Assembly: GCA_913061095.1 (NCBI GenBank)
Contig: CAJXVM010000004.1
Coordinates: 127,556-191,555 of the forward strand
From: an uncultured Ignavibacteria bacterium
Lineage (GTDB): Bacteria > Bacteroidota > Ignavibacteria > SZUA-365
Direction: 5' to 3'
Length of the DNA stretch: 64,000 bases
The translations under genes were made by a program, and so were the position numbers. Every line of letters starts with the position of its first letter. The first letter of the stretch is position 1. Shown here piece after piece: positions 7,406 to 50,274 of this stretch. The notes under the pieces were generated by a model that saw only the letters and a program-made list of their open reading frames with translations, did not search any database and was not told where the DNA came from.

Positions 7406-7474
7406 CGCCACCGCCGAACCAACGGCTCGGCCAATTTCCGGATACACAAAATTCGTTCCCTGTCGCGGGGAACA

Positions 7475-7503
7475 TGCACACTGCTTCCATCGTACAGTGT
7501 GCA
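7475..7503 (+). other. Perfect 9-bp inverted repeat hairpin (TGCACACTG-11nt-CAGTGTGCA) between nuclease and A2M genes
   Basis: Read directly from the sequence. There is no T-run after it, so it is not a canonical terminator. Confidence 0.4.
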
Positions 7504-7545
7504 TAATCACGCCTGCCAGAATCGATCAATATCCGGAGACCCGTC

Positions 7546-10500: not shown

Positions 10501-13500
10501 GAGACCACGCGCTTCCTTTATGGCAGTGCCTACCGCGACGTGCGCGCATTGTACCGTGTACTGCGCCGCGGCGAACCGGAGCGCGAGGAGTGGAGCGATT
10601 TCGATGGTGACCTGCGAACGTTCGAACTCACGGCACAGGAAAAACATCGCGGCGGTTTCGTTGCGCAGATTTTCTTCGTGCGAAATTACCGTCTCTACCA
10701 GAAGACTGTCATCATTTCCGTTCCCTGGTCGAACAAGGATCTCGCCATCGAGACCGCGACCTTCCGCGACAAGCTGCGTCCGGGAGAGAAGGAGGAATGG
10801 CGTATCACGATCAAAGGAGCGAAGCGTGATCAGGTGGCCGCCGAAGTGCTGGCCTCCATGTACGACGCGTCGCTGGATGCCATATACAGGCAGGAGTGGC
10901 CGCGCTTCTCCTGGCCGTTTTTCGCCTGGCACGTCCAGACCTCCGATCACAGCTTCGGCGGCGCATCCGGCCAGCTCTACATGGACGACTGGAATGAGAG
11001 TCAGCCGTCATGGAATCAGCAGTACGACCGGCTGAATCTTTTCCTGCTTGGTCGCGGCCGCTATTTCTACGGTCAGCGGGCGTACATGCTGAAATCCACT
11101 GCCGTTGAAGAGGGAAGCATGGCGTTCGCCATGGGAGGTGAAGCGCCCCCGCCAGCGGCGGAAGCGGAGGACCGCGCTGTTCGTCGGGACAAAATGGAAG
11201 CGGTGCTCGACGAAGAGGCCGAGGTCGAGGAGAAGCCCGCAGAGGAAGGATCCGGTGAAGGCGGCCTCGACATGGTCAAGGCGCGCACGAATTTTGATGA
11301 AACCGCGTTTTTCTATCCCGACCTGCTGACGGACGAAGAGGGGAATGTCGTTCTGCGCTTCACCGCGCCCGAAGCGCTGACGCGCTGGAAGCTGAGGCTG
11401 TATGCGCATACGCCGGATCTGAAAACCGGTTATCTCGAAAAGACGGCGGTCACGCAGAAAGAGCTGATGGTCATGCCCAACATGCCGCGCTTTTTGCGCG
11501 AGGGCGATCGCATCGTGCTCATGACCAAGATCACGAACCTCTCCGACACGACGCTCAGCGGCACGGCCGTGCTGAAACTCTTCGACGCGCTGTCGATGCA
11601 GCCGATCGACGGGAAGTTCAATCTCCGCGACGCCGAACGCAGCTTCACTGCCGAGAAAGGGCGCAGCACGACCGCGCGTTGGGAAATCAGTGTGCCGGAG
11701 GGTGTGTCGGCCGTAACGTACCGTATCGTCGCGAAGGCCGGCAGTTTCTCCGACGGTGAGGAGATGGCGCTGCCCGTGCTGCCGAATCGCATGCTCGTCA
11801 CCGAAACCATGCCGATGAATATCCGCGGGGGACAGACGAAGGAGTTCACCTTCGAGAAGCTGGTGAACAGCGGTGCGTCGTCCACCCTGCGTCATCATCA
11901 GCTCACGCTCGAGATGACATCCCAGCCGGCCTGGTACGCGGTGCAGGCGCTGCCCTACCTGATGGAGTATCCCTACGAATGCTCCGAGCAGGTATTCAAC
12001 CGCTACTACGCCAACAGCATCGCCGGGCATATCGCCAACAGCAACCCGAAGATCAAACGCGTCTTCGATGCGTGGAAAAATACCGACGCGCTGCTCTCCA
12101 ACCTGCAGAAGAACCAGGATCTGAAGATGCTGCTGCTCGAGGAAACGCCCTGGGTGATGCAGGGCAAGGATGAAAGCGAACGCAAGAAGCGCATCGCCCT
12201 GCTGTTCGATCTCAACACCATGGGCAACAATCTCGAGAGCGCCATGCTCAAGCTGGAGAAGGCGCAGGCGAGCAACGGCGGCTGGCCGTGGTTCCCCGGT
12301 CTGCCCGAGAGCCGCTACATCACGCAGTACATCGTGGCAGGATTCGGACACCTCGACGCGTTGGATATCACCGTCAGTGACGAACGCGTCGCGCGCATGA
12401 TTCGCCGAGCCGTGAATTTCATGGACGAGCGCATGCACGCCGACTACCTCGAACTCAAGCGGCGTGAGGATGACACCTTCGATCCGGAAAAGGACTATCT
12501 CAATTACCTCGCCATACAGTACCTCTACGCCCGCAGCTATTTCCTCGATCAGGAGATTCCGGATCGCTACGATGAGTCGGTGAACTTCTGGCTCGAGGAA
12601 TCCCGCAAGTGGTGGGTGCGCCGCAATCACATGGCGCAGGGCATGATCGCGCTTGCCCTGCACCGCTTCCGCGACAGCGACGTGCCGATGGCCGTTGTGC
12701 GCTCACTGAAGGAGCGCGCACTGCAGAACGAGGAGATGGGCATGTACTGGAAATACGACCGCGGCTGGTTCTGGTACCAGGCACCGATCGAAACGCAGGC
12801 CCTGCTCATCGAGGTATTCGATGAAGTGGCGAACGACATGAACGCCGTCGAGGAAATGAAGATCTGGCTGCTCAAGCAGAAGCAGGTGCAGGACTGGGGA
12901 TCTACCGTCGCAACGGCCGAGGCCTGCTACGCGCTGCTGCGCCGCGGCAGCAATCTGCTCGCATCGGACAAGCTGGTGGAAGTCAGCATGGGCGGCGAGC
13001 GCATCGATCCGAAAGCCATGGGCGCGGACATCGAGGCCGGCACGGGACATTACCGCGTGGATTGGCGCCGCGGCGAGATCGATCCCGACATGGGACGCGT
13101 CACGGTGAAGAAGGAAGACCAGGGCATTGCCTGGGGCGCGTTGTACTGGCAGTACTTCGAACAGCTCGACAAAATCACGCCCGCACAGTCTCCGCTGCAG
13201 ATCGAGAAAAAGCTCTTCCGCCAGCGCAACACGGAGAAGGGCGTGGTGCTCGAACCGATCACCGGGGAGAATGCCCTCGAGGTAGGCGACGTGCTGAAGG
13301 TGCGCATCACGATTCGCGTGGACCGCGACATGGAATACGTGCATATGAAGGACATGCGCGGCGCTGGACTCGAACTGATCGAACAGCTCTCCGGCCATCG
13401 CTATCAGGGCGGTCTCATCTACTACGAAGCCCCGCGCGACGCCTCTGTGAATTTCTTTTTCCACTGGCTGCGCAAGGGCGTGCACGTGTTCGAGTACCCG

Positions 13501-13614
13501 CTGCGTGTCTCCCACGAGGGCCGCTTCTCAAACGGCATCTCCAGCATCCAGTGCATGTACGCTCCCGAATTCGCCGCGCATACGGCGGGGGTGACGGTTA
13601 CCGTTAAGCCGTAA
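7546..13614 (+). CDS. Alpha-2-macroglobulin family protein (2022 aa) with thioester motif CSEQ
   Basis: Signal peptide MLLSIRLAFLLLITAPVIFLSTE with GGAGAC as RBS. The size and MG-domain-like repeats fit bacterial A2M. The thioester-type motif is PYECSEQVF (CxEQ). The C-terminal receptor-binding-like domain is present. Confidence 0.8.
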   Translation: MLLSIRLAFLLLITAPVIFLSTELLEGLSYTTNWSVFMKGDYEEQWKEVDRALDEGLPKTALELVEKIYERAQREGNRPQIVKAISYRVALHSVTSEEDETVLIDDLETEIDAAEQPVRAILTSMLADLYWNYYQQNRWRIHERTQVEDDPAADFRTWDASVFFDTTAALYLQALEPADLLKDTPVEAYRDILHAGKDGEQYRPTMYDVLAHRALDFFENDETDLPSPQQDFEVTGLEALAPLDAFIATEFTSPNPSNTKYNAILLYQDLLRFHRDGGREEAVIDLDLQRLEFSRRITWHEDADTTFFQAVESIYGKYSSSPMSAQAGYVLADYHFDAGNYVEALACCRKEIERFPESRGAVNCRALESRILQKELSLTVEESMPPDAPFLISAGFRNIRDVHFRIVRMPSDALFSDRRGYRSARERLEDLLDGNVVKEWSQTLPVTDDYKKHLVDLRGPALPLGTYMLFMSHGADFSLDENAIAYAWLRVTRLSLQSLNEQRGGPNRFFVLDAVNGYPLEDVKVEMFTQRWESGSYRYERVPMGDRRTDANGSFTLEPGRDRQGRFFRLSLGKDTLAIGQSFYAWQRGSERAQRRTMFFTDRAIYRPGQTVHVKGIVLEGSSERADYAVVKNVRSTVVFYDANHQKIHETDVRTNEYGSFNTVFTVPSGVLTGMMSIRNEWGSTPLRVEEYKRPKFEVEFEPVKGTYRLNETVNVTGVAKAYAGANIDGAEVSWRVVRRTRYPYWFWWWRPIPRGEEREIAHGTTRTDADGRYEISFEALPDKSVDKSTQPVFTYEISADVTDINGETHSATASVSAGYTSIELGLRTAETVDVHEEAKIVITARNLGGEPVATDGTIVVERLDAPDRILRDRVLPKPDTWLLSEAEFVRDFPHDVYRDENIPDTWPVAERVVERRFRCGEEGEDSLRLADLEPGRYRITITAKDPSGEDLELKKFITAYRAEAPVPYAAPELYVENSTHVEPGETTRFLYGSAYRDVRALYRVLRRGEPEREEWSDFDGDLRTFELTAQEKHRGGFVAQIFFVRNYRLYQKTVIISVPWSNKDLAIETATFRDKLRPGEKEEWRITIKGAKRDQVAAEVLASMYDASLDAIYRQEWPRFSWPFFAWHVQTSDHSFGGASGQLYMDDWNESQPSWNQQYDRLNLFLLGRGRYFYGQRAYMLKSTAVEEGSMAFAMGGEAPPPAAEAEDRAVRRDKMEAVLDEEAEVEEKPAEEGSGEGGLDMVKARTNFDETAFFYPDLLTDEEGNVVLRFTAPEALTRWKLRLYAHTPDLKTGYLEKTAVTQKELMVMPNMPRFLREGDRIVLMTKITNLSDTTLSGTAVLKLFDALSMQPIDGKFNLRDAERSFTAEKGRSTTARWEISVPEGVSAVTYRIVAKAGSFSDGEEMALPVLPNRMLVTETMPMNIRGGQTKEFTFEKLVNSGASSTLRHHQLTLEMTSQPAWYAVQALPYLMEYPYECSEQVFNRYYANSIAGHIANSNPKIKRVFDAWKNTDALLSNLQKNQDLKMLLLEETPWVMQGKDESERKKRIALLFDLNTMGNNLESAMLKLEKAQASNGGWPWFPGLPESRYITQYIVAGFGHLDALDITVSDERVARMIRRAVNFMDERMHADYLELKRREDDTFDPEKDYLNYLAIQYLYARSYFLDQEIPDRYDESVNFWLEESRKWWVRRNHMAQGMIALALHRFRDSDVPMAVVRSLKERALQNEEMGMYWKYDRGWFWYQAPIETQALLIEVFDEVANDMNAVEEMKIWLLKQKQVQDWGSTVATAEACYALLRRGSNLLASDKLVEVSMGGERIDPKAMGADIEAGTGHYRVDWRRGEIDPDMGRVTVKKEDQGIAWGALYWQYFEQLDKITPAQSPLQIEKKLFRQRNTEKGVVLEPITGENALEVGDVLKVRITIRVDRDMEYVHMKDMRGAGLELIEQLSGHRYQGGLIYYEAPRDASVNFFFHWLRKGVHVFEYPLRVSHEGRFSNGISSIQCMYAPEFAAHTAGVTVTVKP

Positions 13615-13659
13615 CCCGTGTAAGCGCAGACGCGAAATTCATCTCGCGCTGATCACGTA

Positions 13660-13739
13660 AGTGCAAAGTACAAAGTGCAAAGTGCAAAAGTCAGTCGACA
13701 CACACTCCGTTTTCCGGAAGTGTTTTGCACTTTGCACTG
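13660..13739. terminator. Bidirectional terminator hairpin with 16-bp stem plus GTGCAAAGT direct repeats
   Basis: gtgcaaagtacaaagtgcaaagtgcaaaag...tgttttgcactttgcactg. AGTGCAAAGTGCAAAA pairs with TTTTGCACTTTGCACT across a ~33-nt loop. It lies between the convergent A2M and hydroxylase genes. Confidence 0.6.
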
Positions 13740-13774
13740 TTGAATGATAGGTGCACTTCGAGACGGAGAGATAC

Positions 13775-14569
13775 TCATTCCCCCGAGTACACATCCCCCT
13801 TCAGCGGCCGGAAGGCGAACAGGTGTTGACGAATGTAGTTTTTCGGAAATTCAATTTCCCTGAGTCCGTAACCGGCGGGTTTTTTCCGCTCGGGAAGAAA
13901 GCCGGTGCCGAAGATCCAGTCCCATATCGCCAGCTTGGTGGCGAAGTTGTACGAGCCATCCGCGACGACATCGGAGTGATGCCAGCGGTGCATCTCCGGT
14001 CCGTTGATCACGTACTGCAGCTTGCCGGTGTGCACGTCGATATTCGAGTGAATCCACATCCCCCAGATCGCAGATATCATGCCTTTGTAGAGGGCGACCT
14101 CGGGCGCGGCGCCGAGCAGGACAATGGGAGCGAACTCGATCGTCTGATTGATCAGGATTTCCAGCGAATGGGAGCGCGATCCCGAGAGCCAGTCCACGTC
14201 TTTCGTGGAGTGATGCGCCTCATGGATGCGCCAGAGGCGAATCGAGCGGTGCTGGATGCGGTGGAACCAGTAGATGTACAGGTCATGCGTCACCAGGAAG
14301 AGCAGCACCTGCAGCCACACGGGCCAGTGGGAAATCAGATGCATCCGCGACAGCATCGTACTCGCGTCGATCCACTGGATCAGCCAGTTGATCAGCAGTC
14401 CCAGGAGATAGCTCTGGACAATGGAATACATGATCAGATCATTCCAGAATCCTTCGCGCAGAAACTTCTGCTGCTCCTCGTACGGGAACAGCCGTTCGAA
14501 TGTGACGATGATCGCCGCCGCGATCACGATGACGAACGGGGATATCAGTTCGAGGCTCATTGATTGCAC
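13775..14569 (-). CDS. Fatty acid hydroxylase / sterol desaturase superfamily membrane protein
   Basis: Histidine boxes HRIQH, HEAHH and HRWHH sit in a polytopic hydrophobic protein. Confidence 0.8.
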   Translation of the reverse strand: MQSMSLELISPFVIVIAAAIIVTFERLFPYEEQQKFLREGFWNDLIMYSIVQSYLLGLLINWLIQWIDASTMLSRMHLISHWPVWLQVLLFLVTHDLYIYWFHRIQHRSIRLWRIHEAHHSTKDVDWLSGSRSHSLEILINQTIEFAPIVLLGAAPEVALYKGMISAIWGMWIHSNIDVHTGKLQYVINGPEMHRWHHSDVVADGSYNFATKLAIWDWIFGTGFLPERKKPAGYGLREIEFPKNYIRQHLFAFRPLKGDVYSGE

Positions 14570-14668
14570 GCCATCCTGTATGACAACATTCTGTGTGACA
14601 TGGCAGAACCGGACTCCGAGGGGAATCCGGTCCTGCAGGAGGGGGAATTGGAATCAGGTGTGCGTCCG

Positions 14669-15574
14669 TTATGCGACTTCCGGTTCCTCCTGCTTCAGAT
14701 GCACACGGCGAAGTTTCTTGCGCGGTGCGAGCTCGCTCTCGTACACGCGCTTGATTCCGTCACCGAGTGACTTTTCGATATCTCGAATGTTGGCGACGAG
14801 TCGGTATAGACCGCCGATTTCGACTGATGCGGCATGATCGGAACCCCACATGGCGCGATCAAGCGTGACATGTCGCTCGATGAACGTGGCGCCCATGGCG
14901 ACGGCGGCCCAGGTCGGTGCGAGGCCCGTTTCGTGACCGGAGTACCCGATCGGGGTGTCAGGATATTTCTGCATCAGTGTGTTCAGCATGCGGAGGTTGA
15001 GCTCGTTCACATCACAGGGGTAGGCGGATGTTGAATGGGCGATGAGCAGATTGTCTGTGCCGAGAACTTCCACGGCAGCTGCGATTTCCTCTGTGGTGGA
15101 CATCCCCGTGCTGATCATCAGCGGCTTTCCGGTTTCTTTCATGTGCTTCAGCAGTGCATGGTCGGTCAGCGAGGCGGATGGCGCCTTGTAAACCGGCGGA
15201 TCGAATTTTTCGATGGCATCGACGGACGGTTCATCCCAGCAGGAGGCGAACCAATGAATGCCCTTCTCCCCGCAGTAGCGGTCGATCTCCGCGTATTCAT
15301 CTTCGCCGAATTCGATCAGGTGCCGGTAATCGATATATCGCATGCGACCCCAGAGCGTGTCGCGCTCGACATCCCATTGATCACGGGGCACGCACAGCTC
15401 CGGTGTGCGCTTCTGAAACTTGACTGCATCGCAGCCGGAGAGAGCGGCGCCGTCGATGAGCTTTTTTGCGAGGTCAAGAGAACCGTTGTGATTGATGCCG
15501 ATCTCGGCGATGACATACACGGGATGTCCGCTGCCGACGGTTTTCTCTCTGATCTGGCGTATGGGATTGCTCAT
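14669..15574 (-). CDS. N-acetylneuraminate/pseudaminate synthase (NeuB/SpsE) family PEP-condensing enzyme, without C-terminal SAF/antifreeze-like domain
   Basis: VYVIAEIGINHNGSLDLAKKLID...DAVKFQKR...GYSGHE is the NeuB TIM-barrel signature. The internal ATG at 15574 is preceded by AGGAGAAGG, whereas the ORF-track start at 15622 has no RBS. The protein is ~302 aa, too short to carry an SAF domain. Confidence 0.75.
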   Translation of the reverse strand: MSNPIRQIREKTVGSGHPVYVIAEIGINHNGSLDLAKKLIDGAALSGCDAVKFQKRTPELCVPRDQWDVERDTLWGRMRYIDYRHLIEFGEDEYAEIDRYCGEKGIHWFASCWDEPSVDAIEKFDPPVYKAPSASLTDHALLKHMKETGKPLMISTGMSTTEEIAAAVEVLGTDNLLIAHSTSAYPCDVNELNLRMLNTLMQKYPDTPIGYSGHETGLAPTWAAVAMGATFIERHVTLDRAMWGSDHAASVEIGGLYRLVANIRDIEKSLGDGIKRVYESELAPRKKLRRVHLKQEEPEVA

Positions 15575-41474: not shown

Positions 41475-41548
41475 GGTGAGCGTAGCTCAGTTGGTAGAGC
41501 ATCAGATTGTGGCTCTGAGGGTCGCGGGTTCAAGCCCCGTCGCTCACC
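41475..41548 (+). tRNA. tRNA-His (anticodon GUG) with encoded G-1
   Basis: GGTGAGCGTAGCTCAGTTGGTAGAGCATCAGATTGTGGCTCTGAGGGTCGCGGGTTCAAGCCCCGTCGCTCACC. The anticodon stem is TCAGA/TCTGA with loop TTGTGGC. The extra 5' G is characteristic of tRNA-His. Confidence 0.9.
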
Positions 41549-41558
41549 CCTCCAAACA

Positions 41559-41590
41559 AACGGTCCCGCCTCGCGGGACCGTCTGCTTTT
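41559..41590. terminator. Bidirectional intrinsic terminator (tRNA-His and nrfA)
   Basis: CGGTCCCGC-ctc-GCGGGACCG is flanked by aaacaaa and tctgctttt. Confidence 0.75.
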
Positions 41591-41650: not shown

Positions 41651-43120
41651 TCAATACTTCGCCTGCCGTACCTCCGCCTGCTTGTCCCACTTCGGCACCA
41701 CCGTCTCCATGAATTCCTTCTTTTCCGCACGGAATTTCTCCATGTCCAGCCCCAGATACTCCTGGGCCTTCGCCTTCGTTGAAATATCCGGCAGTGGAAT
41801 TTCGTCAGTGTACCCGTGCCGTGCGAGCACGCGCACGATCTTCGTCCGTGCCCGTTCGGCTTTCTCGATCGACGCGCCCAGCGTCCGCGCCGCCTCGACC
41901 GGCGAGTGGAAGCCCATCGCGTTTGATGCCGAGACGTAATCCCAGCGCCATTGTGCGTGGCGGATCAGTGTGAGCACCGGCTCCATTTCCTGCCCGGTTG
42001 CGCCCTTATCCCAGGCAAATTTCGCCTCGATATGCGCCTTTGCCAGCGCGTCTTCGGCGCGTTCACGGAGCTCCTCGATATTGTCCTGCCGCTGATAGAC
42101 GTCCTTACGCAGCTGCTCCTCGCTCTCGCGATGACAGACCTGGCAGGATGTCGAGATGGTCGCGAGCGGACTCATGATCTGGTGATTGGTGAACTTGACG
42201 CCGCCCTCGCTGCGGTAGGGCATGTGGCAGTCGGCGCAGGAGACCCCGCGGCTGGCGTGAACGCCCGTCATGTAGATTTCATAATCGGGATGCTGCGCCT
42301 TGATGATGGGAGTCTTGCTGAGCGCGTGCACGAAATCCACGTGCTCGATCTCGTCGTAATACGTCTCCATGTTCTCCGCGCTGTAGCCGTTATCCCACGG
42401 GAAGGTGAGGTACTTCTCTTCCTTCCCCTTGAAATAATATTCCACATGGCACTGTGCGCAGACGAGTGAGCGCATCTCCTGATGGGATGCCTCCTCGATG
42501 CGTTTCCCCTGACGTTCGAAAGCCTCGATCAGCGCGGGACGCGTGATGCGGAGGTTCATCGTTTTGGGATCGTGACAGTCCTGACAGCCGATGTTGTTGA
42601 CGATCTCCGGACCGAGCTCTTCCCAGGAGGCCTTGTAGAATTCGCCGACGCCGCGTTCCTCCATGACGCGCGGCACATCGGTGCTCTTGCATGTCCAGCA
42701 TGTGGCTGGCTGCGAAACCCTCGTACGCAGCGTCTTGCGGATATCTTCGACGGCGTGGTAATGGCCGCGTCCCTGGTTGTAATCGTGGGAGAATGAATAC
42801 CCCGCCCAGAGAATGACGAGATTCGGATAGCGTTCGAGGTGGTCGATGACCGAATTCCCACCATGCCTGCTCGTAAAGCCGGTGTCGGCCGTGGCGGCAT
42901 AGGTTTCGTATTCACGGGGATAATTCTCTCCCCAGACCTCGTTACGCGGCTCCCATTCGTCGATGGGTTCCACCTGCACGACGAGATCCGCCTCGTCGCG
43001 GCGCTCGACAATCGATGCGGCGAGCAGCCCGATGAGAAAGACAACGACGACGGTTCCGAGGAAGAGCGTCCAGCCCAGCCAGGGCTTTTCCTGGACGATG
43101 TCCATGATGCGGCGTTTCAT
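41651..43120 (-). CDS. nrfA: Cytochrome c nitrite reductase (ammonia-forming) pentahaem subunit
   Basis: CWTCKS is the NrfA-specific CxxCK haem-1 motif. CQDCH, CAQCH, CADCH and CQVCH follow. The internal start MKRRIMDIVQEKPWLGW has an AGGAGAA RBS and sits 19 nt after the nrfH stop. Confidence 0.9.
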   Translation of the reverse strand: MKRRIMDIVQEKPWLGWTLFLGTVVVVFLIGLLAASIVERRDEADLVVQVEPIDEWEPRNEVWGENYPREYETYAATADTGFTSRHGGNSVIDHLERYPNLVILWAGYSFSHDYNQGRGHYHAVEDIRKTLRTRVSQPATCWTCKSTDVPRVMEERGVGEFYKASWEELGPEIVNNIGCQDCHDPKTMNLRITRPALIEAFERQGKRIEEASHQEMRSLVCAQCHVEYYFKGKEEKYLTFPWDNGYSAENMETYYDEIEHVDFVHALSKTPIIKAQHPDYEIYMTGVHASRGVSCADCHMPYRSEGGVKFTNHQIMSPLATISTSCQVCHRESEEQLRKDVYQRQDNIEELRERAEDALAKAHIEAKFAWDKGATGQEMEPVLTLIRHAQWRWDYVSASNAMGFHSPVEAARTLGASIEKAERARTKIVRVLARHGYTDEIPLPDISTKAKAQEYLGLDMEKFRAEKKEFMETVVPKWDKQAEVRQAKY

Positions 43121-43139
43121 GTGTTCTCCTGTAAGTGCG

Positions 43140-43736
43140 CTATTGATTCTGTGGTGTGTCTTCGAGATAGTCGCGCAGCCATTTCGGGGCGACCGGACCG
43201 GGCAACGGCACGCGCGCATACGGCGTGGATGCCAGACTGTTCACACGCCCGTGGGGTACCTCGCGGTGGCAATCCCAGCAGAGCAGCCCCTCTTTCGCGG
43301 CCGCATGCATCGCGGTTACGCTCGTGGCGGAAACCTCGTGCACGAGATCCCCGTGACAGCGGATACAGTTCTCCTGCACGACGTCGATGCCGGCCTGCTT
43401 GATGCGGATGACCTGCGGCTCGAGGCGCAGCGTGAACATCGTGGCGTGGCGGAGCCCGTCACTTGCCTTGAAGGCGTAGGTGCGCAGGGGGTTGTCATGC
43501 GGGACGTGACAGTCGTTGCAGGTGGTGCCGCGACCGTGGCTGCTGTTGCGCCAGGTCACGTACTGCGGCGCCATGACATGACAGTTGACGCAGGCGCGCG
43601 GGTCGTCGGACAGGTAGGATACCGCGTTCGAGATGTAAAGCACGAACGCGCCGAGACCCGCCAGGATGCCGACGATGATCAGCACCGGCAGGCGCCACTT
43701 CGGGGGAGGGATGAAGAATTGCAGGGGACGAAACAT
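43140..43736 (-). CDS. nrfH: Cytochrome c nitrite reductase small subunit, NapC/NirT-family tetrahaem quinol dehydrogenase
   Basis: N-terminal TM helix plus four CxxCH motifs (CVNCH, CNDCH, CIRCH, CWDCH). The gene is directly upstream of nrfA. Confidence 0.85.
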   Translation of the reverse strand: MFRPLQFFIPPPKWRLPVLIIVGILAGLGAFVLYISNAVSYLSDDPRACVNCHVMAPQYVTWRNSSHGRGTTCNDCHVPHDNPLRTYAFKASDGLRHATMFTLRLEPQVIRIKQAGIDVVQENCIRCHGDLVHEVSATSVTAMHAAAKEGLLCWDCHREVPHGRVNSLASTPYARVPLPGPVAPKWLRDYLEDTPQNQ

Positions 43737-43866
43737 GTCTTCTCTGTGCCTGTTTCACGTGTTCTCGGGAGCTGACGGCGACCGGGTGGATCGCGTATTC
43801 TCAAGTGGCAGCGTTCGCGTCAATCGCATCCCATTGGACGGAGGCGATCGACGCGAACACATGCTG

Positions 43867-45129
43867 TCAGAAATTGACCGTGGTCATCAGGTAGCCCCAG
43901 TTCGCCGCGTCGGCGGTACCGGGCAGAAGGGGACGGTTTTCGCTGCCGCTGAACATGGAATATCCGAGTGTCATGTTGACGGCATCGGCGATGGTCCATT
44001 TTGCGTATGCATCGATCTCGGTGCCGATGGATTGCTCGAATTCTGCGGACGACCCGCCGCGCTCCGCCGGATCGATCACCGTGGAGAACAGATGCACATC
44101 CGCACCGACGGTCAGTCCTCCGGCGGGAACAAGGCTCGCCTGCACGATGATGTTCTGCAGGCCGAGTTCATCGGTATGCAGCGGGATGTTCGTGAAGTAA
44201 TCCATGTGTCCGTAGGACCGATGATTCGAGGCGTACAGCGTGTTGAACGCGCCGTAGGTGTCCGGGTCATCGGGATCCTGACCGGAGAGGCGGTCGATGC
44301 CGGCGCCGAGACGGAGCTCCGCCAGGTTCTCAAAAGTATATCCGAGGCGCACGCCGATGAGGTTGGCGCTGATGTCGCGGCTCTCCGAACCGGGTGCGAG
44401 CGGCATGTAGTCACCGGTCTGCAGCGCGGCGTCGACTTTATAGTCGAAGTTCCCGGCCTGGCCGGCGGAATAGAAACCTGCCGTCATGCGGTTCTGGCGC
44501 ACCGTGCCGCCTTCGGGCACAGATGATCCCTCGGGATTATCGTAGAGCAGGAATCCCTCGACCGTGTAATCCCGCTCGGCGGGAGCCCAGACGGCCCAGC
44601 CGCCTGCGAGGAAGACGTCGCGCATGTAATCGGGATTGACGGGATTCCGCGTGACCGCGGCGCCGATGGCGTCGAAGCTGAATTCTCCCCCGGTGAGACG
44701 CAGCACGCCGGCGTCGAAGCTGCGGCTGAAGTTGTTCCACGGCGACTCGCCGAGCAGACGCTGATTGCCGTATGCCAGCACCTGGCGTCCGAGTTTGAAG
44801 GACAGCAGTCCGTCCGCAAGTCCGGTCACCTCGACGAATCCCTGGCGCAGATCGAAATGGGCCGCACCGGTATTGAGCACACTGGCTTCCTGCCCGAACG
44901 TGCGGGCGTCCTGCAGTTCGGCCACCACGCGTACCTGCTCGTTTACCTGCGCATCCGCGCGCAGGCGCACCCGCAGCACGTGGTACACGTCATGATGACT
45001 CTCCTCGAAAAAGCTTCTGTCGTCGAACTCGCTTCTCTCGCGGAAATGTCCGGAAAACTCGACGTTCTGCGCGGGAAGCACGGCGGTGGAGAAGAGAAAA
45101 ACGCAGAGAATCGCAAGTATGTGTTTCAT
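43867..45129 (-). CDS. Outer-membrane beta-barrel porin (alginate-export/AlgE-like family)
   Basis: Signal peptide MKHILAILCVFLFSTAVLPAQ. The pattern of alternating residues is beta-rich, and the protein ends in a C-terminal F. Confidence 0.55.
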   Translation of the reverse strand: MKHILAILCVFLFSTAVLPAQNVEFSGHFRERSEFDDRSFFEESHHDVYHVLRVRLRADAQVNEQVRVVAELQDARTFGQEASVLNTGAAHFDLRQGFVEVTGLADGLLSFKLGRQVLAYGNQRLLGESPWNNFSRSFDAGVLRLTGGEFSFDAIGAAVTRNPVNPDYMRDVFLAGGWAVWAPAERDYTVEGFLLYDNPEGSSVPEGGTVRQNRMTAGFYSAGQAGNFDYKVDAALQTGDYMPLAPGSESRDISANLIGVRLGYTFENLAELRLGAGIDRLSGQDPDDPDTYGAFNTLYASNHRSYGHMDYFTNIPLHTDELGLQNIIVQASLVPAGGLTVGADVHLFSTVIDPAERGGSSAEFEQSIGTEIDAYAKWTIADAVNMTLGYSMFSGSENRPLLPGTADAANWGYLMTTVNF

Positions 45130-45165
45130 GATCGGAGCCCTTTAAAATTGGTGATGATCGTACGT

Positions 45166-46308
45166 TTACCGGACGCCGCTTCCGGCGCCGCCACTGTTCT
45201 CGCGCCAGCGGGTCTGATCGACATCCCGCGAAGACCGGCCGTTCTGCCGGGCGGTGTTCTCCTGCGGAGCGCTGCCCTGATTGTGCCGGTAGATCGGATT
45301 GTCGATATCCTTGATGCGCCGCGAGTACTCGGCTTCACCGACGATGCTGTGCCAGTTGCCTGTCAGCATGGCCAGTCCGGTGACCAGAACGAAAACGCCG
45401 ACCACGGCGGCGGCGACCCAGGCCGGCCGCACGGCGCGGCGGCTTCTGCGCGATGCCTTCAGCTGCAGCGTTTCCCTGACGGGACACGCCGCGACACATG
45501 CCATACAGGTCGTGCATTCGTCCGACATGACCGTATGAACACGATCGACGGCAATACGGTTCGGACACACTTTCGCGCATTTCGAGCAGTCGATGCAGCT
45601 CTCCGCGTTGCGCGTGATGCGAAACGGGCTCAACAGGCCGGTGATGCCAAGCAGGGCTCCGTAGGGGCAGAGGTAACGGCACCAGAAATTCCGGATCACG
45701 AGCGAAAAGGCAACGAGCACTCCGATGACGATCAGGGAGAACTGACTGATATTCTTGAAAAACAGAAACATTTTTACGTCAGCGACGCGATTGTACGGAC
45801 TGTCGAGAAACATCCGCAGGGAGAGGGCGTCCATCTGGAAAAACACAACATATATAAGGAAGGCCAGCATGAGGTATTTCAGCGAGCGCAGCGGATAATC
45901 GAGCCACTTCCACACGCGGAAATTCCGGCCGAACAGCTTTTTCCCGAATTCCCCGATGTTCTCCGAAAGCGTGCCGACAGGACACAGCCAGCTGCAGAAG
46001 GATTTCTTCAGAAGAACGGACATCGCGATGATGGCGATGAGGATGGACAGTCCCGCCGGATGCACCGGGTGGATGCTGCCGTCCAGCATCAGATACCAGA
46101 GGCTCATCAGCGCGGAGATGGGGAGAAAGCCCTCCACGCCCGGGGGACGCGCAACCTGCACGGCGCCGCTGCCTTCGTGCCAGTAATACCACAGGGTGAA
46201 TTCCACACCGATCCAGAGGCAGAGCGCGATGAACGCCGCCTGCACCCAGAAGCGCAGCTGCTGACTGTCTGGCGTCTTCCATTTCCGTATGTGTATGTGC
46301 CACTTCAT
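45166..46308 (-). CDS. NapH/MauN-family membrane-bound polyferredoxin (two 4Fe-4S CxxCxxCxxxCP motifs plus two CX3CP motifs)
   Basis: CIDCSKCAKVCP and CTTCMACVAACP. CSWLCP and CRYLCPYG lie in TM regions. Confidence 0.7.
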   Translation of the reverse strand: MKWHIHIRKWKTPDSQQLRFWVQAAFIALCLWIGVEFTLWYYWHEGSGAVQVARPPGVEGFLPISALMSLWYLMLDGSIHPVHPAGLSILIAIIAMSVLLKKSFCSWLCPVGTLSENIGEFGKKLFGRNFRVWKWLDYPLRSLKYLMLAFLIYVVFFQMDALSLRMFLDSPYNRVADVKMFLFFKNISQFSLIVIGVLVAFSLVIRNFWCRYLCPYGALLGITGLLSPFRITRNAESCIDCSKCAKVCPNRIAVDRVHTVMSDECTTCMACVAACPVRETLQLKASRRSRRAVRPAWVAAAVVGVFVLVTGLAMLTGNWHSIVGEAEYSRRIKDIDNPIYRHNQGSAPQENTARQNGRSSRDVDQTRWRENSGGAGSGVR

Positions 46309-46351
46309 TATAGATACTCGACTCTAATATCGATTTTATGGATAAAAAAAC

Positions 46352-46804
46352 TCAGCCTTTCGCCGCGTATTCCGCGAGCACATGGGCGATTTTCTCGCGG
46401 GAGAGCGGGAGGAGGTCGGCGAGGCTGTCTTCCGAGAGCATGCCGCGGATCTGGTCGCGCACGGCGCCCCAGCGGTCGTGCACGGGACATGGTTTCCCGG
46501 TGCCGCATCCCGGGAAGCCGAGGACGCAGCTTTCGAGGAAGTCGAGTCCGTCAATGGCATCCACCACGTCGATCAGGCGAATCTTTTCCGGCGAGCGCTG
46601 AAGGGTGAATCCGCCATGCACGCCCTTGTAGGATTTCAGCACGTCTTTTTCGCTGAGTGCCTGCAGAATTTTCGCAAGGAAATGCACCGGGATGTTGAGT
46701 TCCGCCGCGATCTCCTTGATCCCCACGCGACGGTCCGGTTTCGTGGCGATGTACAATGTCGCCTGTATCCCGTATTCGCACGCCCGTGAAAAAATGATTG
46801 ACAT
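46352..46804 (-). CDS. Rrf2-family Fe-S transcriptional regulator (NsrR/IscR-like)
   Basis: N-terminal wHTH YGIQATLYIA...GIKEIAAELNIPVHFLAKILQAL, and a three-Cys cluster CVLGFPGCGTGKPC. Confidence 0.85.
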   Translation of the reverse strand: MSIIFSRACEYGIQATLYIATKPDRRVGIKEIAAELNIPVHFLAKILQALSEKDVLKSYKGVHGGFTLQRSPEKIRLIDVVDAIDGLDFLESCVLGFPGCGTGKPCPVHDRWGAVRDQIRGMLSEDSLADLLPLSREKIAHVLAEYAAKG

Positions 46805-46828
46805 GATTCAGAAACTCGACTCTGTTAT

Positions 46829-46867
46829 CTACATTCGTAATGTAGCGCTTCCGCGGACATGAGTCAA
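46829..46867 (-). promoter_or_regulatory. Sigma70-like promoter (TTGACT-17-TACATT) of the nsrR operon, overlapped at -10 by a perfect 7-bp inverted repeat CTACATT-cgt-AATGTAG (putative Rrf2/NsrR operator)
   Basis: Reverse complement reads cgcTTGACTcatgtccgcggaagcgcTACATTacgAATGTAGataac, ending ~25 nt before the ATG. The half-site ACATT/AATGT resembles NsrR-box half-sites. Confidence 0.55.
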
Positions 46868-46881
46868 GCGGAAATGGAAGC

Positions 46882-46960
46882 GTCATGCAGCTTCCCCGCA
46901 TCATGCAGCTTCCCCGCGTCATGCAGTACGCCCACGGGTCATGCTGAGCCCGTCGAAGCA
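46882..46960. repeat. Phased TCATGC-containing direct repeats (2 perfect 18-bp units + 3 degenerate, spacing 18-20 bp)
   Basis: gtcatgcagcttccccgc a tcatgcagcttccccgc g tcatgcagtacgcccacggg tcatgctgagcccgtcgaa gcatg. It lies upstream of the nsrR promoter. Confidence 0.5.
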
Positions 46961-46978: not shown

Positions 46979-48070
46979 TCACCGGGTAAACAGATCTTCC
47001 TGCAGTTCTTCATCGACCATGCGGTAAATGCCGTGCTCGAGTGTGACGGCGAACACGCGCACGGGGTAGCCGGGCGCGATGAGTACACGCATGACATCCG
47101 TGGTTGGAAGACCGTCGTTGATCTCTGTCCATGTGTTCCCGCCGTCAATCGATCGATGCACACCGCTGTGGATGGCCGAGAGGTAGATGATATCCTCGTT
47201 CCAGGGATGAATCGCGATCTCGGAGATCTCTTCGATGGCGTTGACCTGAGCCCATGTGAGGCCCGCGTTTGTGGACACGTACAGTCCCGCGCCATGCCCG
47301 GTGATCCCCGCATATACGACATCCGGATTCGAGGGAGAGAACGCCAGACAGCGCGCGCCGGTGAACTTGTCGCGATTGATGCCCTCCTGTGCCGGCTTCC
47401 AGGTATCTCCGGCATCATTCGACCGCAGAAGCGCCGTAATCGACGAGGCGCCGGCAAGCATAGTCCACGGCCGATCCGGATGGCTTGCCACACACTGGAT
47501 CCCGAGATCCGGCAGCTTCTGATTCCAGGTGCGACCGTCATCACGGCTGACGAAAATGCCATGGGCCCATCCGAGCCCGCAGACCAGCGCCGCATTGATT
47601 CCGTTCGTACGGAGAATATGAAGAATGCCCCCGGATGTCCAGTTGTTCGGCGTGTCGATGATGTCCCAGCTTTCGCCGGCATTCGTGCTGAGAAAGAGGT
47701 TCTTCACACTCTTTCGCCCGCTGAAGCCCGCGTACAGCCTGCTGCGGTCGGCGGGATCAATGCACAGCGCCGTGACGCGTTCTCTGCGGTAGGATTCCGG
47801 GATGCCGGTGTTGTGGAGAATCCAGTTGAAACCGCCGTCGACGGATTTGTACAGACGGCCGAAATCCGTGCCGCAGTACATGGTCAGCGAATCGGCGGGA
47901 TCGATGGCGATGGTGTACACGAGCGTGTGCTGCAGCCCGCGGTTCATGGGCTCCCAGGCGGATGTCTGCGCTCGAAGTCCGGAGGCGGTGAACAGCGCGG
48001 AATCCGCGAGCAGCACGACGGCTGCGATGATAATGATGACGGTGAATCGACGCATGTTGCTCCTCCTCAC
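46979..48070 (-). CDS. Secreted BNR/sortilin-like (Ycf48-like) beta-propeller repeat protein
   Basis: The signal peptide and repeated S/TxDxGxTW motifs (SVDGGFNW, STNAGESW, SRDDGRTW, SNDAGDTW, STNAGLTW, SIDGGNTW). Confidence 0.65.
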   Translation of the reverse strand: MRRSNMRRFTVIIIIAAVVLLADSALFTASGLRAQTSAWEPMNRGLQHTLVYTIAIDPADSLTMYCGTDFGRLYKSVDGGFNWILHNTGIPESYRRERVTALCIDPADRSRLYAGFSGRKSVKNLFLSTNAGESWDIIDTPNNWTSGGILHILRTNGINAALVCGLGWAHGIFVSRDDGRTWNQKLPDLGIQCVASHPDRPWTMLAGASSITALLRSNDAGDTWKPAQEGINRDKFTGARCLAFSPSNPDVVYAGITGHGAGLYVSTNAGLTWAQVNAIEEISEIAIHPWNEDIIYLSAIHSGVHRSIDGGNTWTEINDGLPTTDVMRVLIAPGYPVRVFAVTLEHGIYRMVDEELQEDLFTR

Positions 48071-50157
48071 TTCAGCAGTGTCATGGTGATGCTGCGCTGC
48101 AGTCCCCCGCGGGTCAGCACGCAGAAATACGTTCCCGACGGCAGCGCGATGCCGGCATCGTCCCGGCCGTCCCAGACGAGACTGTGCGTGCCGGGCGCGT
48201 AGTCACGGTCCGCCAGTGTGCGCACCAGCCGTCCCAGCGCATCGTAAATGCAGATGCGCACACGGGAATCACCGCTGCTGCGCGACGGAATGAAAAAGCG
48301 GATCGTGGTCGCGGGATTGAAGGGATTCGGGTAATTCTGCTCCAGCTCCAGGTCACGCGCCGCGGCGATCTCGCCGACGGCGTTCGCGTCCCCCGGATCC
48401 ACTTCCCGGTACGCGATGAACGCGGTGAACGGCGTCAGCAGATTGTACTTTTCACTCAGCCGGATTACCGCCTCGCGGATCTCCGTCGAATCCTCCACGT
48501 CGCGCAGGCGCACGAGCAGCTGATCAATGCGCTTCGATGCCCACAGCCGTGCGACCTGCACGAGCTCTGTCGTGTCTTCCCGCAGCAGCAGAGGACGCGT
48601 GGCGCGGTGACGGACCGAAAATCCCTGCGGGCGGTAGGAGAACGTGCAGGAATCCCGCACCGGGGACAGAAACCGTCCCGTTCCAGTCATGGCGGCCGGA
48701 TTCGTCACGAGCAGCGATGTGGCAGGAAAGATGTCGGCAACGCCGGCGGGGTATTCCAGCAGCGCATCCTGCACGAGCGTGTTCTCGAAGCTAAACGTCG
48801 TGCGGCGCAGCGCGTCGTCGAAATCCATCCCCTGTTCGAGCGCGCAGAGCCGGCCTCCCGTCATGCCCGCGAGATCATGCAGCAGTTCAAGGCGCTCGGT
48901 GAATATCGTGATGGGATAGAAACACACCGTGTGCGTTCCCACGCGCAGATGCGCCGCCAGCTCGCCTGCATCGGTTGCACCACGGTTCGGGAGTCCGTCG
49001 GTGATGAAAATGCAGCGCTTGTTCGCCTCCGGCCGCAGGGCGAGCCGGCCGATCGCTTTGAGCACGGCCTCGTAATCGGTGATGCCGCGCGGGGTGTATT
49101 TCAGCTGTAGAAATGTTGATGCGGTCATCCGCGCGGTGATGTTCGCGAATATCATTCCGGTGTCGGACGGAAAATGCAGGATGTCGCCGTTGAACAGAAG
49201 AATATGGCAGCGGTCGCTCGGCAGCAGGCGCGCCATGATGTTGGCCATTGCGGTCATGACCATCCCCTGGCGCAGTCCGGTCATGCTGCCCGACGCGTCG
49301 ATCGCAAAAATGAAATCGGTTTTGACATCCTGCGATACGTCGATCGTGTCCGGAAACCAGAGCATGAAAAAACTGCTGTCCGATGTCCCCGTCTCGGTAT
49401 GCGTCAGCACGAACAGTGAATCGCTCCATCCTTCCAGCGCGAAGGTCAGCGCGAAATCCTCCTCGATGAGCAGGTTCTCATGCTCGAGATCCAGCAGCTG
49501 CCGTCGGTCGCTGACATCGGTCCGGCTGAGCATCGTCGGACGATCGTCGAAGTTCGTCTTGCTCGACGTGATCGGTGCGTCCATCGCCAGCTCGACGCGC
49601 AGGGCGATGCGCTGCAGGGGGGCGGACTGGTAGCCGCTCATGTTCAGCGGATAGGTATACCGTAGCGTTCCTTCACGGTTCACCGGCAGCTCGTGGAAAT
49701 ATTCGATCTCGATGCGCCGCTCTTCGCCGGGACGAATGGGAAAAATGCGCAGCTGGAAACGGTTCGCGCTCATGGTTTCGAGGATGGCGGGATCGCCGAC
49801 GCCCTCTTGTTTGAGGGAGTCGTAGATCTGCTTCGCCTCCTCGAGCCGCTTGACCACGAAGCGGATACGCTCGCCGTCGACCCACATCCACAGGCCGTCC
49901 GCCCGCGCACCGTCGGGAAGCTCGAACACGTAGAATCCCTCCAGTTCATACGGGTGATCGTTGCGGAAGGTCTCGTCGACATGCGTCACGGCGAGGCGGT
50001 TGCGGATGATGACGTGAGAACGGACCTCCTGCTGCACGAGATTGTAGATGGGAGACGCCGTGCCGAGTTCGCGTGCGAAGAGCTTTCCGGCCTCCGCGGT
50101 TGCGCCCGCCGCGAGGAACAGGGTGAGCAGGATCAGAACGGAACGGATCATTTTCAT
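48067..50157 (-). CDS. VIT + von Willebrand factor A (MIDAS DASGSM) protein with T9SS C-terminal sorting domain
   Basis: The internal start MKMIRSVLILLTLFLAAGATAEA is preceded by GGAG. The N-terminal VIT-like region, the VWA DxSxS motif and the LEQNYPNPFNPATTIRFFIP...TLLK CTD are all present. A 4-bp overlap with the downstream BNR gene is noted. Confidence 0.7.
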   Translation of the reverse strand: MKMIRSVLILLTLFLAAGATAEAGKLFARELGTASPIYNLVQQEVRSHVIIRNRLAVTHVDETFRNDHPYELEGFYVFELPDGARADGLWMWVDGERIRFVVKRLEEAKQIYDSLKQEGVGDPAILETMSANRFQLRIFPIRPGEERRIEIEYFHELPVNREGTLRYTYPLNMSGYQSAPLQRIALRVELAMDAPITSSKTNFDDRPTMLSRTDVSDRRQLLDLEHENLLIEEDFALTFALEGWSDSLFVLTHTETGTSDSSFFMLWFPDTIDVSQDVKTDFIFAIDASGSMTGLRQGMVMTAMANIMARLLPSDRCHILLFNGDILHFPSDTGMIFANITARMTASTFLQLKYTPRGITDYEAVLKAIGRLALRPEANKRCIFITDGLPNRGATDAGELAAHLRVGTHTVCFYPITIFTERLELLHDLAGMTGGRLCALEQGMDFDDALRRTTFSFENTLVQDALLEYPAGVADIFPATSLLVTNPAAMTGTGRFLSPVRDSCTFSYRPQGFSVRHRATRPLLLREDTTELVQVARLWASKRIDQLLVRLRDVEDSTEIREAVIRLSEKYNLLTPFTAFIAYREVDPGDANAVGEIAAARDLELEQNYPNPFNPATTIRFFIPSRSSGDSRVRICIYDALGRLVRTLADRDYAPGTHSLVWDGRDDAGIALPSGTYFCVLTRGGLQRSITMTLLK

Positions 50158-50274
50158 CGTCGGTACTCCGCAGGATGGAACAGACATCATGATGACACGG
50201 CAATGTGGTGATCGTTCCCCCGACGGTTCTCCTTCGCTCTGTCTCGCATCCATCGGAGTATTTCATCTGCAATC

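Follow-up and report, generated by a model that had tools for sequence, protein, structure and literature searches.

Why would an operon for the reduction of nitrite carry genes for a membrane polyferredoxin and an outer-membrane barrel protein? The question is raised by a 64,000 nt stretch of DNA from an uncultured Ignavibacteria bacterium (contig CAJXVM010000004.1), referred to here as the window. Its minus strand carries five consecutive genes (nt 41651–46804), in the order rrf2 (an Rrf2-family regulator), a membrane polyferredoxin gene, a gene for a barrel protein of the Alginate_exp family, nrfH and nrfA. A preliminary description, made from the sequence alone, had listed the same five genes on one strand, and domain and model matches show that its gene list and coordinates were correct. 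The analysis presented here favours, with a probability of about 60%, a single operon responding to nitric oxide (NO) or nitrite, which would bring together nitrite entry, nitrite reduction and a membrane Fe-S protein of the stress regulon.

Ammonification of nitrite by NrfA retains nitrogen in soils, sediments, bioreactors and the gut, and nrfA is frequent in organisms of the Bacteroidota/Ignavibacteria type. The preliminary description considered the polyferredoxin and the barrel not to be standard nrf components. This holds for the textbook operons of Escherichia coli and Wolinella, from which both are absent, but not elsewhere. The operon BT1414–BT1418 of Bacteroides thetaiotaomicron holds an alginate-export-family gene (PMC10434189), and yccM/polyferredoxin, the family to which the protein of the window is assigned below, is a known member of NsrR and HcpR regulons alongside nrfHA (PMC5320621, PMC545781, PMC4534486).

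Gene content and transcription unit

NrfH (nt 43140–43736, minus strand) is a membrane-anchored tetrahaem quinol dehydrogenase that exceeds the cut-off of model TIGR03153 (168.7 versus 134.2 bits), and its translation displays a hydrophobic N-terminus and the motifs CVNCH, CNDCH, CIRCH and CWDCH. NrfA (nt 41651–43120, minus strand) is a pentahaem, ammonia-forming nitrite reductase (NF008339, 630.4 bits versus a cut-off of 595; PF02335, E = 4.9e-178), and its haem motifs (CWTCK, CQDCH, CAQCH, CADCH and CQVCH) are invariant in an alignment of NrfA sequences (A1). The longest nrfA open reading frame reaches nt 43219, and a conserved start (MKRRIMDIV) is found at nt 43120. Unlike Bacteroides and three of the related loci described below (L029–L031), the 64 kb window has no gene for a ResB/CcsA (NrfI-like) haem lyase detectable by tblastn, so the lyase for the CXXCK haem must be encoded elsewhere in the genome. 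The tblastn searches of the window, which also covered Hcp, FrdX, Crp, Hao-like proteins, NorB and cupin, returned no matches to any of these.

The genes are closely spaced, with intergenic gaps (from rrf2 to nrfA) of 43, 36, 130 and 19 bp. Terminators between the genes had been named beforehand as an observation that would speak against a single unit; a pattern scan found no terminator-like site in any of the four gaps. Upstream of rrf2, a consensus scan predicts a sigma-70-like promoter (TTGACT-17-TACATT, nt 46839–46867, minus strand), and −35 (TTGACT or TTGCAT) and −10 (TAnnTT) elements occur at the matching position before rrf2 in relatives. At the other end, the gap between nrfA and a convergent tRNA-His gene (nt 41476–41550, plus strand) contains a GC-rich hairpin with T-rich tails on both strands (nt 41560–41582; terminator scan, +). 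On the minus strand the stem is followed by GTTTGTTTGG, and this hairpin is likely to mark the end of the operon; in this convergent setting it appears to act as a bidirectional terminator.

Another strong hairpin lies just 3′ of the stop codon of the barrel (porin) gene (nt 43811–43860, minus strand). It is near-perfect, with a 17-bp stem and three further pairs but no U-tract, and the minimum free energy of the porin–nrfH gap is −54.9 kcal/mol compared with −38.8 kcal/mol for shuffled sequences (z = −4.1). The hairpin is not conserved, the corresponding gaps of relatives being only 16–60 bp, and it may serve in mRNA processing or stability or act as a partial terminator. An Rfam scan of the window returned two tRNAs only, and no riboswitch or known leader.

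Conservation of the gene order

Related loci were collected by scanning one genome per species of the GTDB with patterns from NrfA alignment A1, which returned 33 loci. The patterns were N-terminal peptides and are biased to this NrfA clade, so that the fractions given below are not population estimates. Gene maps of these and other loci are based on tblastn matches to the window proteins. The full order Rrf2-polyferredoxin-porin-NrfH-NrfA was found in 13 non-identical loci from genomes and metagenomes, with NrfA identities of 72–86% and median gaps of 43, 96, 29 and 19 bp. The arrangement is therefore not due to chance. The records are labelled as Bacteroidota or Ignavibacteria metagenome-assembled genomes (MAGs), some of them evidently mis-binned as Chromatiales.

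Other loci carry parts of the set in various combinations. An Rrf2-polyferredoxin-NrfHA order without porin occurs in L010, L019, L021 and L129, Rrf2-NrfHA in L016 and Crp-NrfHA in L037, while bare NrfHA genes follow rpoA-rplQ in L023, L024, L036 and L038. The porin comes after the enzyme genes in L025 and L028 (NrfHA-porin) and in L031 (NrfHA-ResB-CcsA-porin). Further orders are FrdX-like-cupin-NrfHA-polyferredoxin (L026) and regulator-FrdX-like-Hcp-NrfHA, with or without a following porin (L028, L032). L028, from Carboxylicivirga sp. N1E11, is the one isolate in the set and has the Crp-type order FrdX-like-Hcp-NrfH-NrfA-porin; none of the loci with the five-gene order is from an isolate. Among the 27 nrfHA loci with enough flanking sequence, the polyferredoxin is present in 14 and a porin relative likewise in 14. 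A comparison of nrfA neighbourhoods had been proposed in the preliminary description, with absence of these two genes from the nrf loci of relatives counting against a joint function; both are present there. One porin-less locus, L010 (nt 6404–10243), is from a close relative (NrfA 80% identical) and has the same flanks around Rrf2-YccM-NrfH-NrfA, which suggests recent loss or gain of the porin within conserved synteny.

The Rrf2 regulator and its putative operators

The regulator (nt 46352–46804, minus strand; PF02082, E = 1.6e-29) carries the motif C93-X6-C100-X5-C106-X2-H109, the Cys and His residues of which are conserved in 26–28 of 28 homologues, and is very probably an Fe-S cluster protein. 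The name nsrR, given to it in the preliminary description, is a functional guess and not a family assignment, as the protein scores 40.3 bits with the NsrR equivalog NF008240 (cut-off 182). The three NsrR-type cluster cysteines (C93, C100 and C106) are present, but they are common to IscR and other Rrf2 proteins and do not discriminate. Scores with the IscR models (TIGR02010, 56.5 versus 207.6 bits; NF008110, 34.8 versus 275) and the SUF regulator model (70 versus 111) are likewise too low, and the NCBIfam equivalogs for NsrR, IscR, SufR-like proteins, CymR and RirA are all below cut-off.

Directly downstream of the −10 element is a putative operator, O1 (nt 46809–46838, minus strand), a partial palindrome of the form T(A/C)GA-N8-TCGA with extended arms. 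Motifs of this type are conserved before rrf2 in 14 loci, for example CTTAACATCGA-N8-TCGATGTTAAG in L008 and ATAGATAA-N9-TTATCTAT in L016. A position weight matrix (PWM) trained on these 14 rrf2-upstream sites gave 32.4 bits for O1, the window copy being weaker than those of relatives but recognisable. A second copy of the motif, O2 (nt 46311–46340, minus strand; 28.2 bits), ends 3 nt before the start codon of the polyferredoxin gene and belongs to a class of sites outside the training set. Nothing else in the 64 kb window scored above 18 bits, and in 586 kb of related loci all matches of at least 20 bits were sites upstream of rrf2 or in the rrf2-polyferredoxin gap, the latter in eight loci. 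A score of 22 was reached by one of 20 mononucleotide shuffles of the window, and lone sites near that value would be unconvincing; O2 is credible because of its score, position and recurrence. The claim of one compact same-strand unit headed by an Rrf2 regulator is thus borne out by the conserved gene order and by operators at the regulator's own promoter and before the polyferredoxin gene.

The polyferredoxin is a YccM-family protein

The second gene (nt 45166–46308, minus strand) codes for a protein of 380 aa, with two Fer4_5/CX3CP units (CSWLCP and CRYLCP) and a 2×[4Fe-4S] domain. BLASTp against E. coli K-12 returned YccM (b0992) at 49% identity over 317 of about 360 residues (E = 2e-103), while NapH was only 24% identical (E = 1e-10). 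Scores with the NapH models are below cut-off (NF007013, 80.2 versus 234 bits; TIGR02163, 88.5 versus 213), and E. coli YccM itself falls with the window protein in the range of 80–94 bits on these models. The two proteins have the same Pfam architecture (two Fer4_5 units and a dicluster domain) and a C-terminal transmembrane (TM) helix followed by a W-x-S/x-x-x-E-x-Y tail. By sequence the polyferredoxin is a member of the YccM family, within the wider NapH/NosR/CcoG superfamily, and the earlier label 'napH-like' does not apply in the sense of NapH; no curated YccM model was found, and this membership is based on full-length similarity, architecture and length class. A NapG-like periplasmic ferredoxin is not among the five genes of the cluster, all of which are assigned. 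Identification as CcoG (cupric reductase) was rejected, with a TIGR02745 score of 33.8 bits (cut-off 316.7) and, in place of the periplasmic Ig-like C-terminal domain, a short tail of ~60 aa that is partly disordered in the AlphaFold2 (AF2) model.

Across 48 polyferredoxin homologues the eight ferredoxin cysteines and both CX3CP motifs are invariant. So too are loop motifs at RPPGVEGFLPIS (residues 54–65), H83-P84 and P171-Y172-N173, with D177 and M180, and a YccM-like C-terminal tail is conserved (W319, E327, Y328, Y340 and H342). The AF2 model (pLDDT 85.8) has the dicluster domain placed between the fourth and fifth of its five long helices. Lys and Arg residues number five in the N-terminus, one in loop 1 and seven in loop 2. 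The published topology of NapH has four helices. Taken together with the periplasmic location of the C-terminal domain in the homologue CcoG (PMC7558416), these features would place the CX3CP motifs and Fe-S clusters in the cytoplasm, and the conserved loops and tail in the periplasm. Searches of the PDB by sequence and with Foldseek returned generic ferredoxin domains only and no fold match for the membrane domain, so they gave no functional clue.

More is known of the regulation of yccM. In vivo binding of NsrR to the yccM promoter, which carries an 11-1-11 NsrR site, was detected in E. coli CFT073 (ChIP-seq) and K-12 (ChIP-chip) (PMC5320621). An HcpR site is predicted for a Desulfuromonas gene annotated as 'yccM, polyferredoxin' (PMC545781), and in Desulfovibrio gigas S-nitrosoglutathione induces a 'membrane-bound polyferredoxin' via HcpR1, together with nrfA, hcp and frdx (PMC4534486). 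Gene contexts were surveyed for eight relatives of the window protein (54–73% identity) and for the window's own source contig, nine places in all. In each of the nine the yccM gene comes directly after a regulator, either Rrf2 or Crp followed by an FrdX-like ferredoxin. NrfHA is found in four contexts, and a Hao-like multihaem cytochrome (PF13447) with a 500-aa NapC/NirT-family (NNT) protein in two. Another two are without a multihaem enzyme, and genes found there specify qNor, hemerythrin and Rrf2, or DUF438-hemerythrin-PAS and DUF1858 proteins. The metagenome loci collected with the porin (described below) include YccM in 15 of 53, in orders such as YccM-NrfH-NrfA-porin and YccM-porin-NrfH.

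Two further observations concern the neighbours of this family. In E. coli K-12 (L047, nt 1052289–1056178) yccM is 71 bp from torS on the same strand, beside the trimethylamine N-oxide reductase system; TorC is a NapC/NirT-family cytochrome, and the adjacency might be fortuitous or might hint at a connection between YccM and that family of cytochromes. In an Ignavibacteria MAG, nrfA is followed directly by a DUF438-hemerythrin-PAS_10 gene and then a DUF1858 gene, and the same pair is directly downstream of Crp-FrdX-like-YccM in another genome (L004, nt 12807–14932; L130, nt 8114–9902), making it a recurrent member of the N-oxide 'toolkit'.

The outer-membrane barrel

The product of the third gene (nt 43867–45129, minus strand; 420 aa) matches PF13372 (Alginate_exp) with 129.9 bits (cut-off 25.2; E = 1.3e-37) and has a signal peptide ending at LPA|QN. 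Its AF2 model is an 18-strand barrel (pLDDT 89.8). A PDB search by sequence gave no match and the fold search alone succeeded, with the best Foldseek matches all being AlgE (3rbh; E = 3e-17, TM-score about 0.7, 15–17% identity). The protein is thus an AlgE-like outer-membrane barrel, as it had been described. Among 43 homologues R30, R32, R53 and R115 are invariant, and R55, R76 and R124 nearly so. In strands 1 and 2 the conserved arginines alternate with hydrophobic residues, a periodicity that suggests a lumen-facing ladder of arginines and an anion-selective pore, making the protein a candidate nitrite channel. No alginate or polysaccharide genes were found within 10 kb on either side, which does not fit an alginate exporter.

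Relatives of the porin are found beside several kinds of N-oxide genes. One at 34% identity has the order porin-NrfH-NrfA, and another at 43% is beside a NirK-cytochrome c fusion (TIGR02376, 367 versus 296 bits), a Crp regulator and ScdA/YtfE. A relative at 27% is between Crp/NnrS genes and a cluster specifying hemerythrin and a haem-copper oxidase, and others adjoin Hao-like cytochromes. Overall, the porin relatives with such associations are 27–59% identical to the window protein, and the porin may come before or after nrfHA. A metagenome set seeded with the porin comprised 80 loci, of which the 53 with at least 2.5 kb of flanking sequence were counted; 31 of these have at least one gene of the N-oxide panel near the porin, usually within 300 bp. 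A role in nitrite uptake, as raised in the preliminary description, is judged plausible.

In a recurrent module (L005, L041, L070, L083 and others) the porin is accompanied by a Hao-like cytochrome (PF13447, ~445 aa) and the 500-aa NapC/NirT-family protein, often with Crp-FrdX-like-YccM. The module probably encodes a system parallel to NrfHA, with an octahaem nitrite/hydroxylamine reductase. An ABC transporter in L045 was considered as NrtABCD and dropped, NCBIfam giving no NrtA assignment.

Proposed function and alternative explanations

The following sequence of events would account for the organisation of the operon. The Rrf2 Fe-S repressor would bind the dyad operator O1, located where transcription from its own promoter begins, and also O2, 0.5 kb downstream and right before yccM, as a roadblock or through looping. 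Modification of its cluster would lift repression and allow expression of the four other genes. The arginine-lined, AlgE-like porin would then admit nitrite, and possibly other N-oxyanions, to the periplasm, where NrfH is predicted to oxidise menaquinol and pass electrons to NrfA for the reduction of nitrite to ammonium, and also of NO and hydroxylamine. YccM, with clusters facing the cytoplasm, most likely links the menaquinone pool to cytoplasmic Fe-S partners of the FrdX/Hcp or hemerythrin type, and probably does not feed NrfA.

The main rival develops the earlier suggestion of an alternative quinol-oxidising route: the polyferredoxin would be a NapH-type quinol dehydrogenase that supplies NrfA with an alternative or extra quinol route via NrfH, comparable to NapGH for NapC in E. 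coli. We consider this unlikely. The protein does share the core of the NapH/NosR/CcoG superfamily (two TM-CX3CP units and a dicluster domain), it adjoins NapC/NirT-family cytochromes (NrfH or NNT) in six of the eight relatives' contexts and in many metagenome loci of several gene orders, and E. coli yccM is beside the tor locus, which encodes a cytochrome of that family. NapH, moreover, is reported to interact with NapC. However, the polyferredoxin is 49% identical to YccM and 24% to NapH, both NapH models are far from their cut-offs, and the cluster lacks a NapG-like partner. Its Fe-S domain, between TM4 and TM5 on the Lys/Arg-rich side, would be cytoplasmic and thus remote from the NrfH haems, and NrfH is already a complete quinol dehydrogenase. 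Two of the eight contexts are without any multihaem enzyme, and YccM is absent from 13 of the 27 nrfHA loci with sufficient flanking sequence. A second quinol-oxidising path to NrfA is accordingly the less favoured interpretation. The constant pairing of yccM with a regulator, in all nine places, points in another direction: YccM might belong to the sensing apparatus, acting in the manner of NosR/NirI as a redox relay in the membrane. It would set or repair the Fe-S cluster state of the neighbouring regulator and so convey quinone-pool redox state or membrane NO to transcription. The short gap to rrf2 (about 43 bp) with an operator inside it, and a weak match to the NosR C-terminus, would agree with this. 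Yet the two regulators, Rrf2 and Crp, are of unrelated families, as would be expected of a regulated target more than of a dedicated co-sensor. The E. coli genes nsrR and yccM are not linked, NsrR senses NO directly without YccM, and a sensing role appears quite improbable.

A different objection concerns the barrel, which could be a general or polysaccharide-related outer-membrane protein whose place beside nrfHA has no substrate-specific meaning. Its family takes its name from alginate export, no substrate is directly evident from the sequence, some relatives at 30% identity are found among unrelated genes, and Rrf2-YccM-NrfHA occurs without porin in the close relative L010 and the more distant L019 and L021. 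Against this are the neighbourhood free of polysaccharide genes, the adjacency to N-oxide enzymes in at least five gene orders and across 27–59% identity, and the four types of enzyme concerned (NrfA, Hao-like, NirK, and haem-copper oxidase with NnrS), as well as co-regulation in B. thetaiotaomicron (PMC10434189). Such a general role seems very unlikely.

Several points weigh against the proposed single NO/nitrite-responsive operon or parts of it. The strong hairpin between porin and nrfH could split expression. The ligand pattern of the regulator, three Cys and a His, resembles that of IscR more than NsrR, and the operator is unlike the 11-1-11 consensus of E. coli NsrR. O2 leaves no room for a separate promoter, which makes its mode of action (roadblock or looping) speculative. 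As for YccM, the window has no hcp, frdX or hemerythrin gene that could provide a cytoplasmic partner, and the adjacency to NrfH-type or NNT-type cytochromes in most loci would also fit a direct partnership. No panel gene accompanies the porin in 22 of the 53 metagenome loci (about 40%), and in six of these that were checked the neighbours are mostly unrelated, such as tRNA synthetase and adenylate kinase genes. General porins usually pass small anions, and a dedicated channel may be needless.

A broader proposal is more tentative than that of the operon itself, and perhaps has one chance in its favour for every two against. It holds that the Alginate_exp relatives represent an unrecognised family of nitrite/N-oxyanion channels serving NrfA, Hao-like/ONR and NirK enzymes in the FCB group and beyond, and that the NsrR/HcpR nitrosative-stress response would have in YccM its missing point of electron entry at the membrane, for example from menaquinol via YccM to FrdX/Hcp or to Fe-S repair.

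Flanking region

Directly upstream of the operon (nt 46979–50253, minus strand) are genes for two secreted proteins, one with BNR/sortilin repeats and the other with VIT and vWA domains and a C-terminal sorting domain of the type IX secretion system (T9SS). The T9SS domain supports an origin within the FCB group. The synteny of both genes with the operon extends to several relatives (clusters c17 and c23), with no functional link evident. Between the BNR-repeat gene and the −35 element, just upstream of the rrf2 promoter, is an 18-nt tandem repeat, TCATGCAGCTTCCCCGCA (2.4 copies, 96% match, nt 46883–46926), possibly a site for another factor. Downstream of the operon are yceD-rpmF-plsX-fabH, and these also are syntenic in relatives. 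The possibility of a mobile island was rejected; given the syntenic flanks and a uniform GC content, the operon represents a stable chromosomal locus.

Significance

NrfHA, Rrf2- or Crp-type control of nitrite and NO genes, and the targeting of yccM by NsrR/HcpR were known before, and the Bacteroides nrf-operon porin had been reported in passing. Within the literature library searched, a search for NapH-like or porin components of nrf loci returned only that mention, in B. thetaiotaomicron (PMC10434189). New are the compact, conserved five-gene operon with its pair of operators, the recognition of the 'NapH-like' gene as yccM, and the breadth of the link between an AlgE-like subfamily and periplasmic N-oxide enzymes. 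The porin and YccM recur beside periplasmic multihaem nitrite reductases in many uncultured lineages, and two uncharacterised families are now tied to genes of model organisms, E. coli yccM and B. thetaiotaomicron BT1414. Nitrite affinity, and hence competition with denitrifiers, would be influenced by the porin if it acts as a nitrite channel. Finding the role of YccM would give a function to an orphan member of the NsrR/HcpR regulon, and a role as electron-entry point would account for the NsrR control of a gene that is an orphan in E. coli. The conserved operator provides a handle for predicting the regulon of this Rrf2 regulator in metagenome-assembled genomes.

Comparison with known systems

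The nearest described counterpart is that of B. thetaiotaomicron, where BT1414 ('alginate export family protein') is in an operon, BT1414–BT1418, with ccsA, ccsB, nrfA and nrfH, and changes 30–36-fold together with nrfHA-ccsBA; a Crp-like regulator gene is adjacent (PMC10434189). The arrangement (BT1413–BT1418) resembles that of the window in having nrfHA in one operon with an Alginate_exp-family protein and a regulator next to it (PMC10434189), and L031 and L028 share its 'porin after nrfA' layout. In the window, by contrast, the porin gene is upstream of nrfH, the regulator is Rrf2 instead of Crp, YccM is present, and ccsBA haem-lyase genes are lacking from both the cluster and the 64 kb.

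In E. coli the regulator is a true NsrR, whereas the window protein fails the NsrR model and its operator differs in sequence. E. coli NsrR also acts at the nrf promoter. Its regulon (hmp, ytfE, hcp-hcr, the nrfA promoter and yccM) has in common with the window an Rrf2 Fe-S regulator and a YccM-family gene (PMC5320621), the genes being scattered there and joined in one operon here. The HcpR regulons of Desulfovibrio and Desulfuromonas include hcp, frdX, a membrane-bound polyferredoxin/yccM, nrfHA, cupin and a predicted porin, and this set of gene families responds to nitrosative stress (PMC545781, PMC1274295, PMC4534486); for the predicted porin of D. gigas (DGI_1469), dependence on HcpR was left unconfirmed (PMC4534486). 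Relatives of the window (L026, L028 and L032) physically join FrdX-like, Hcp, cupin, YccM and NrfHA genes. HcpR is of the Crp/Fnr family while the window regulator is Rrf2, and the Desulfovibrio polyferredoxin DGI_1194 is a possible member of the YccM family.

At the protein level, NapH and the YccM of the window have the superfamily core in common, TM helices with CX3CP motifs and a 2×[4Fe-4S] domain predicted to be cytoplasmic. The window protein differs from NapH, to which it is 24% identical, in lacking a NapG partner and in having an additional helix at the N-terminus, a further TM helix at the C-terminus and a conserved tail, and the invariant motifs RPPGVEGFLPIS and SPYN of its putative periplasmic loops are characteristic of the YccM group. 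The porin, like AlgE of Pseudomonas aeruginosa, is an 18-strand monomeric barrel with conserved arginines. It is distinguished from AlgE by a low identity (15–17%), by the lack of alginate machinery nearby, and by its genomic partners, which are N-oxide enzymes.

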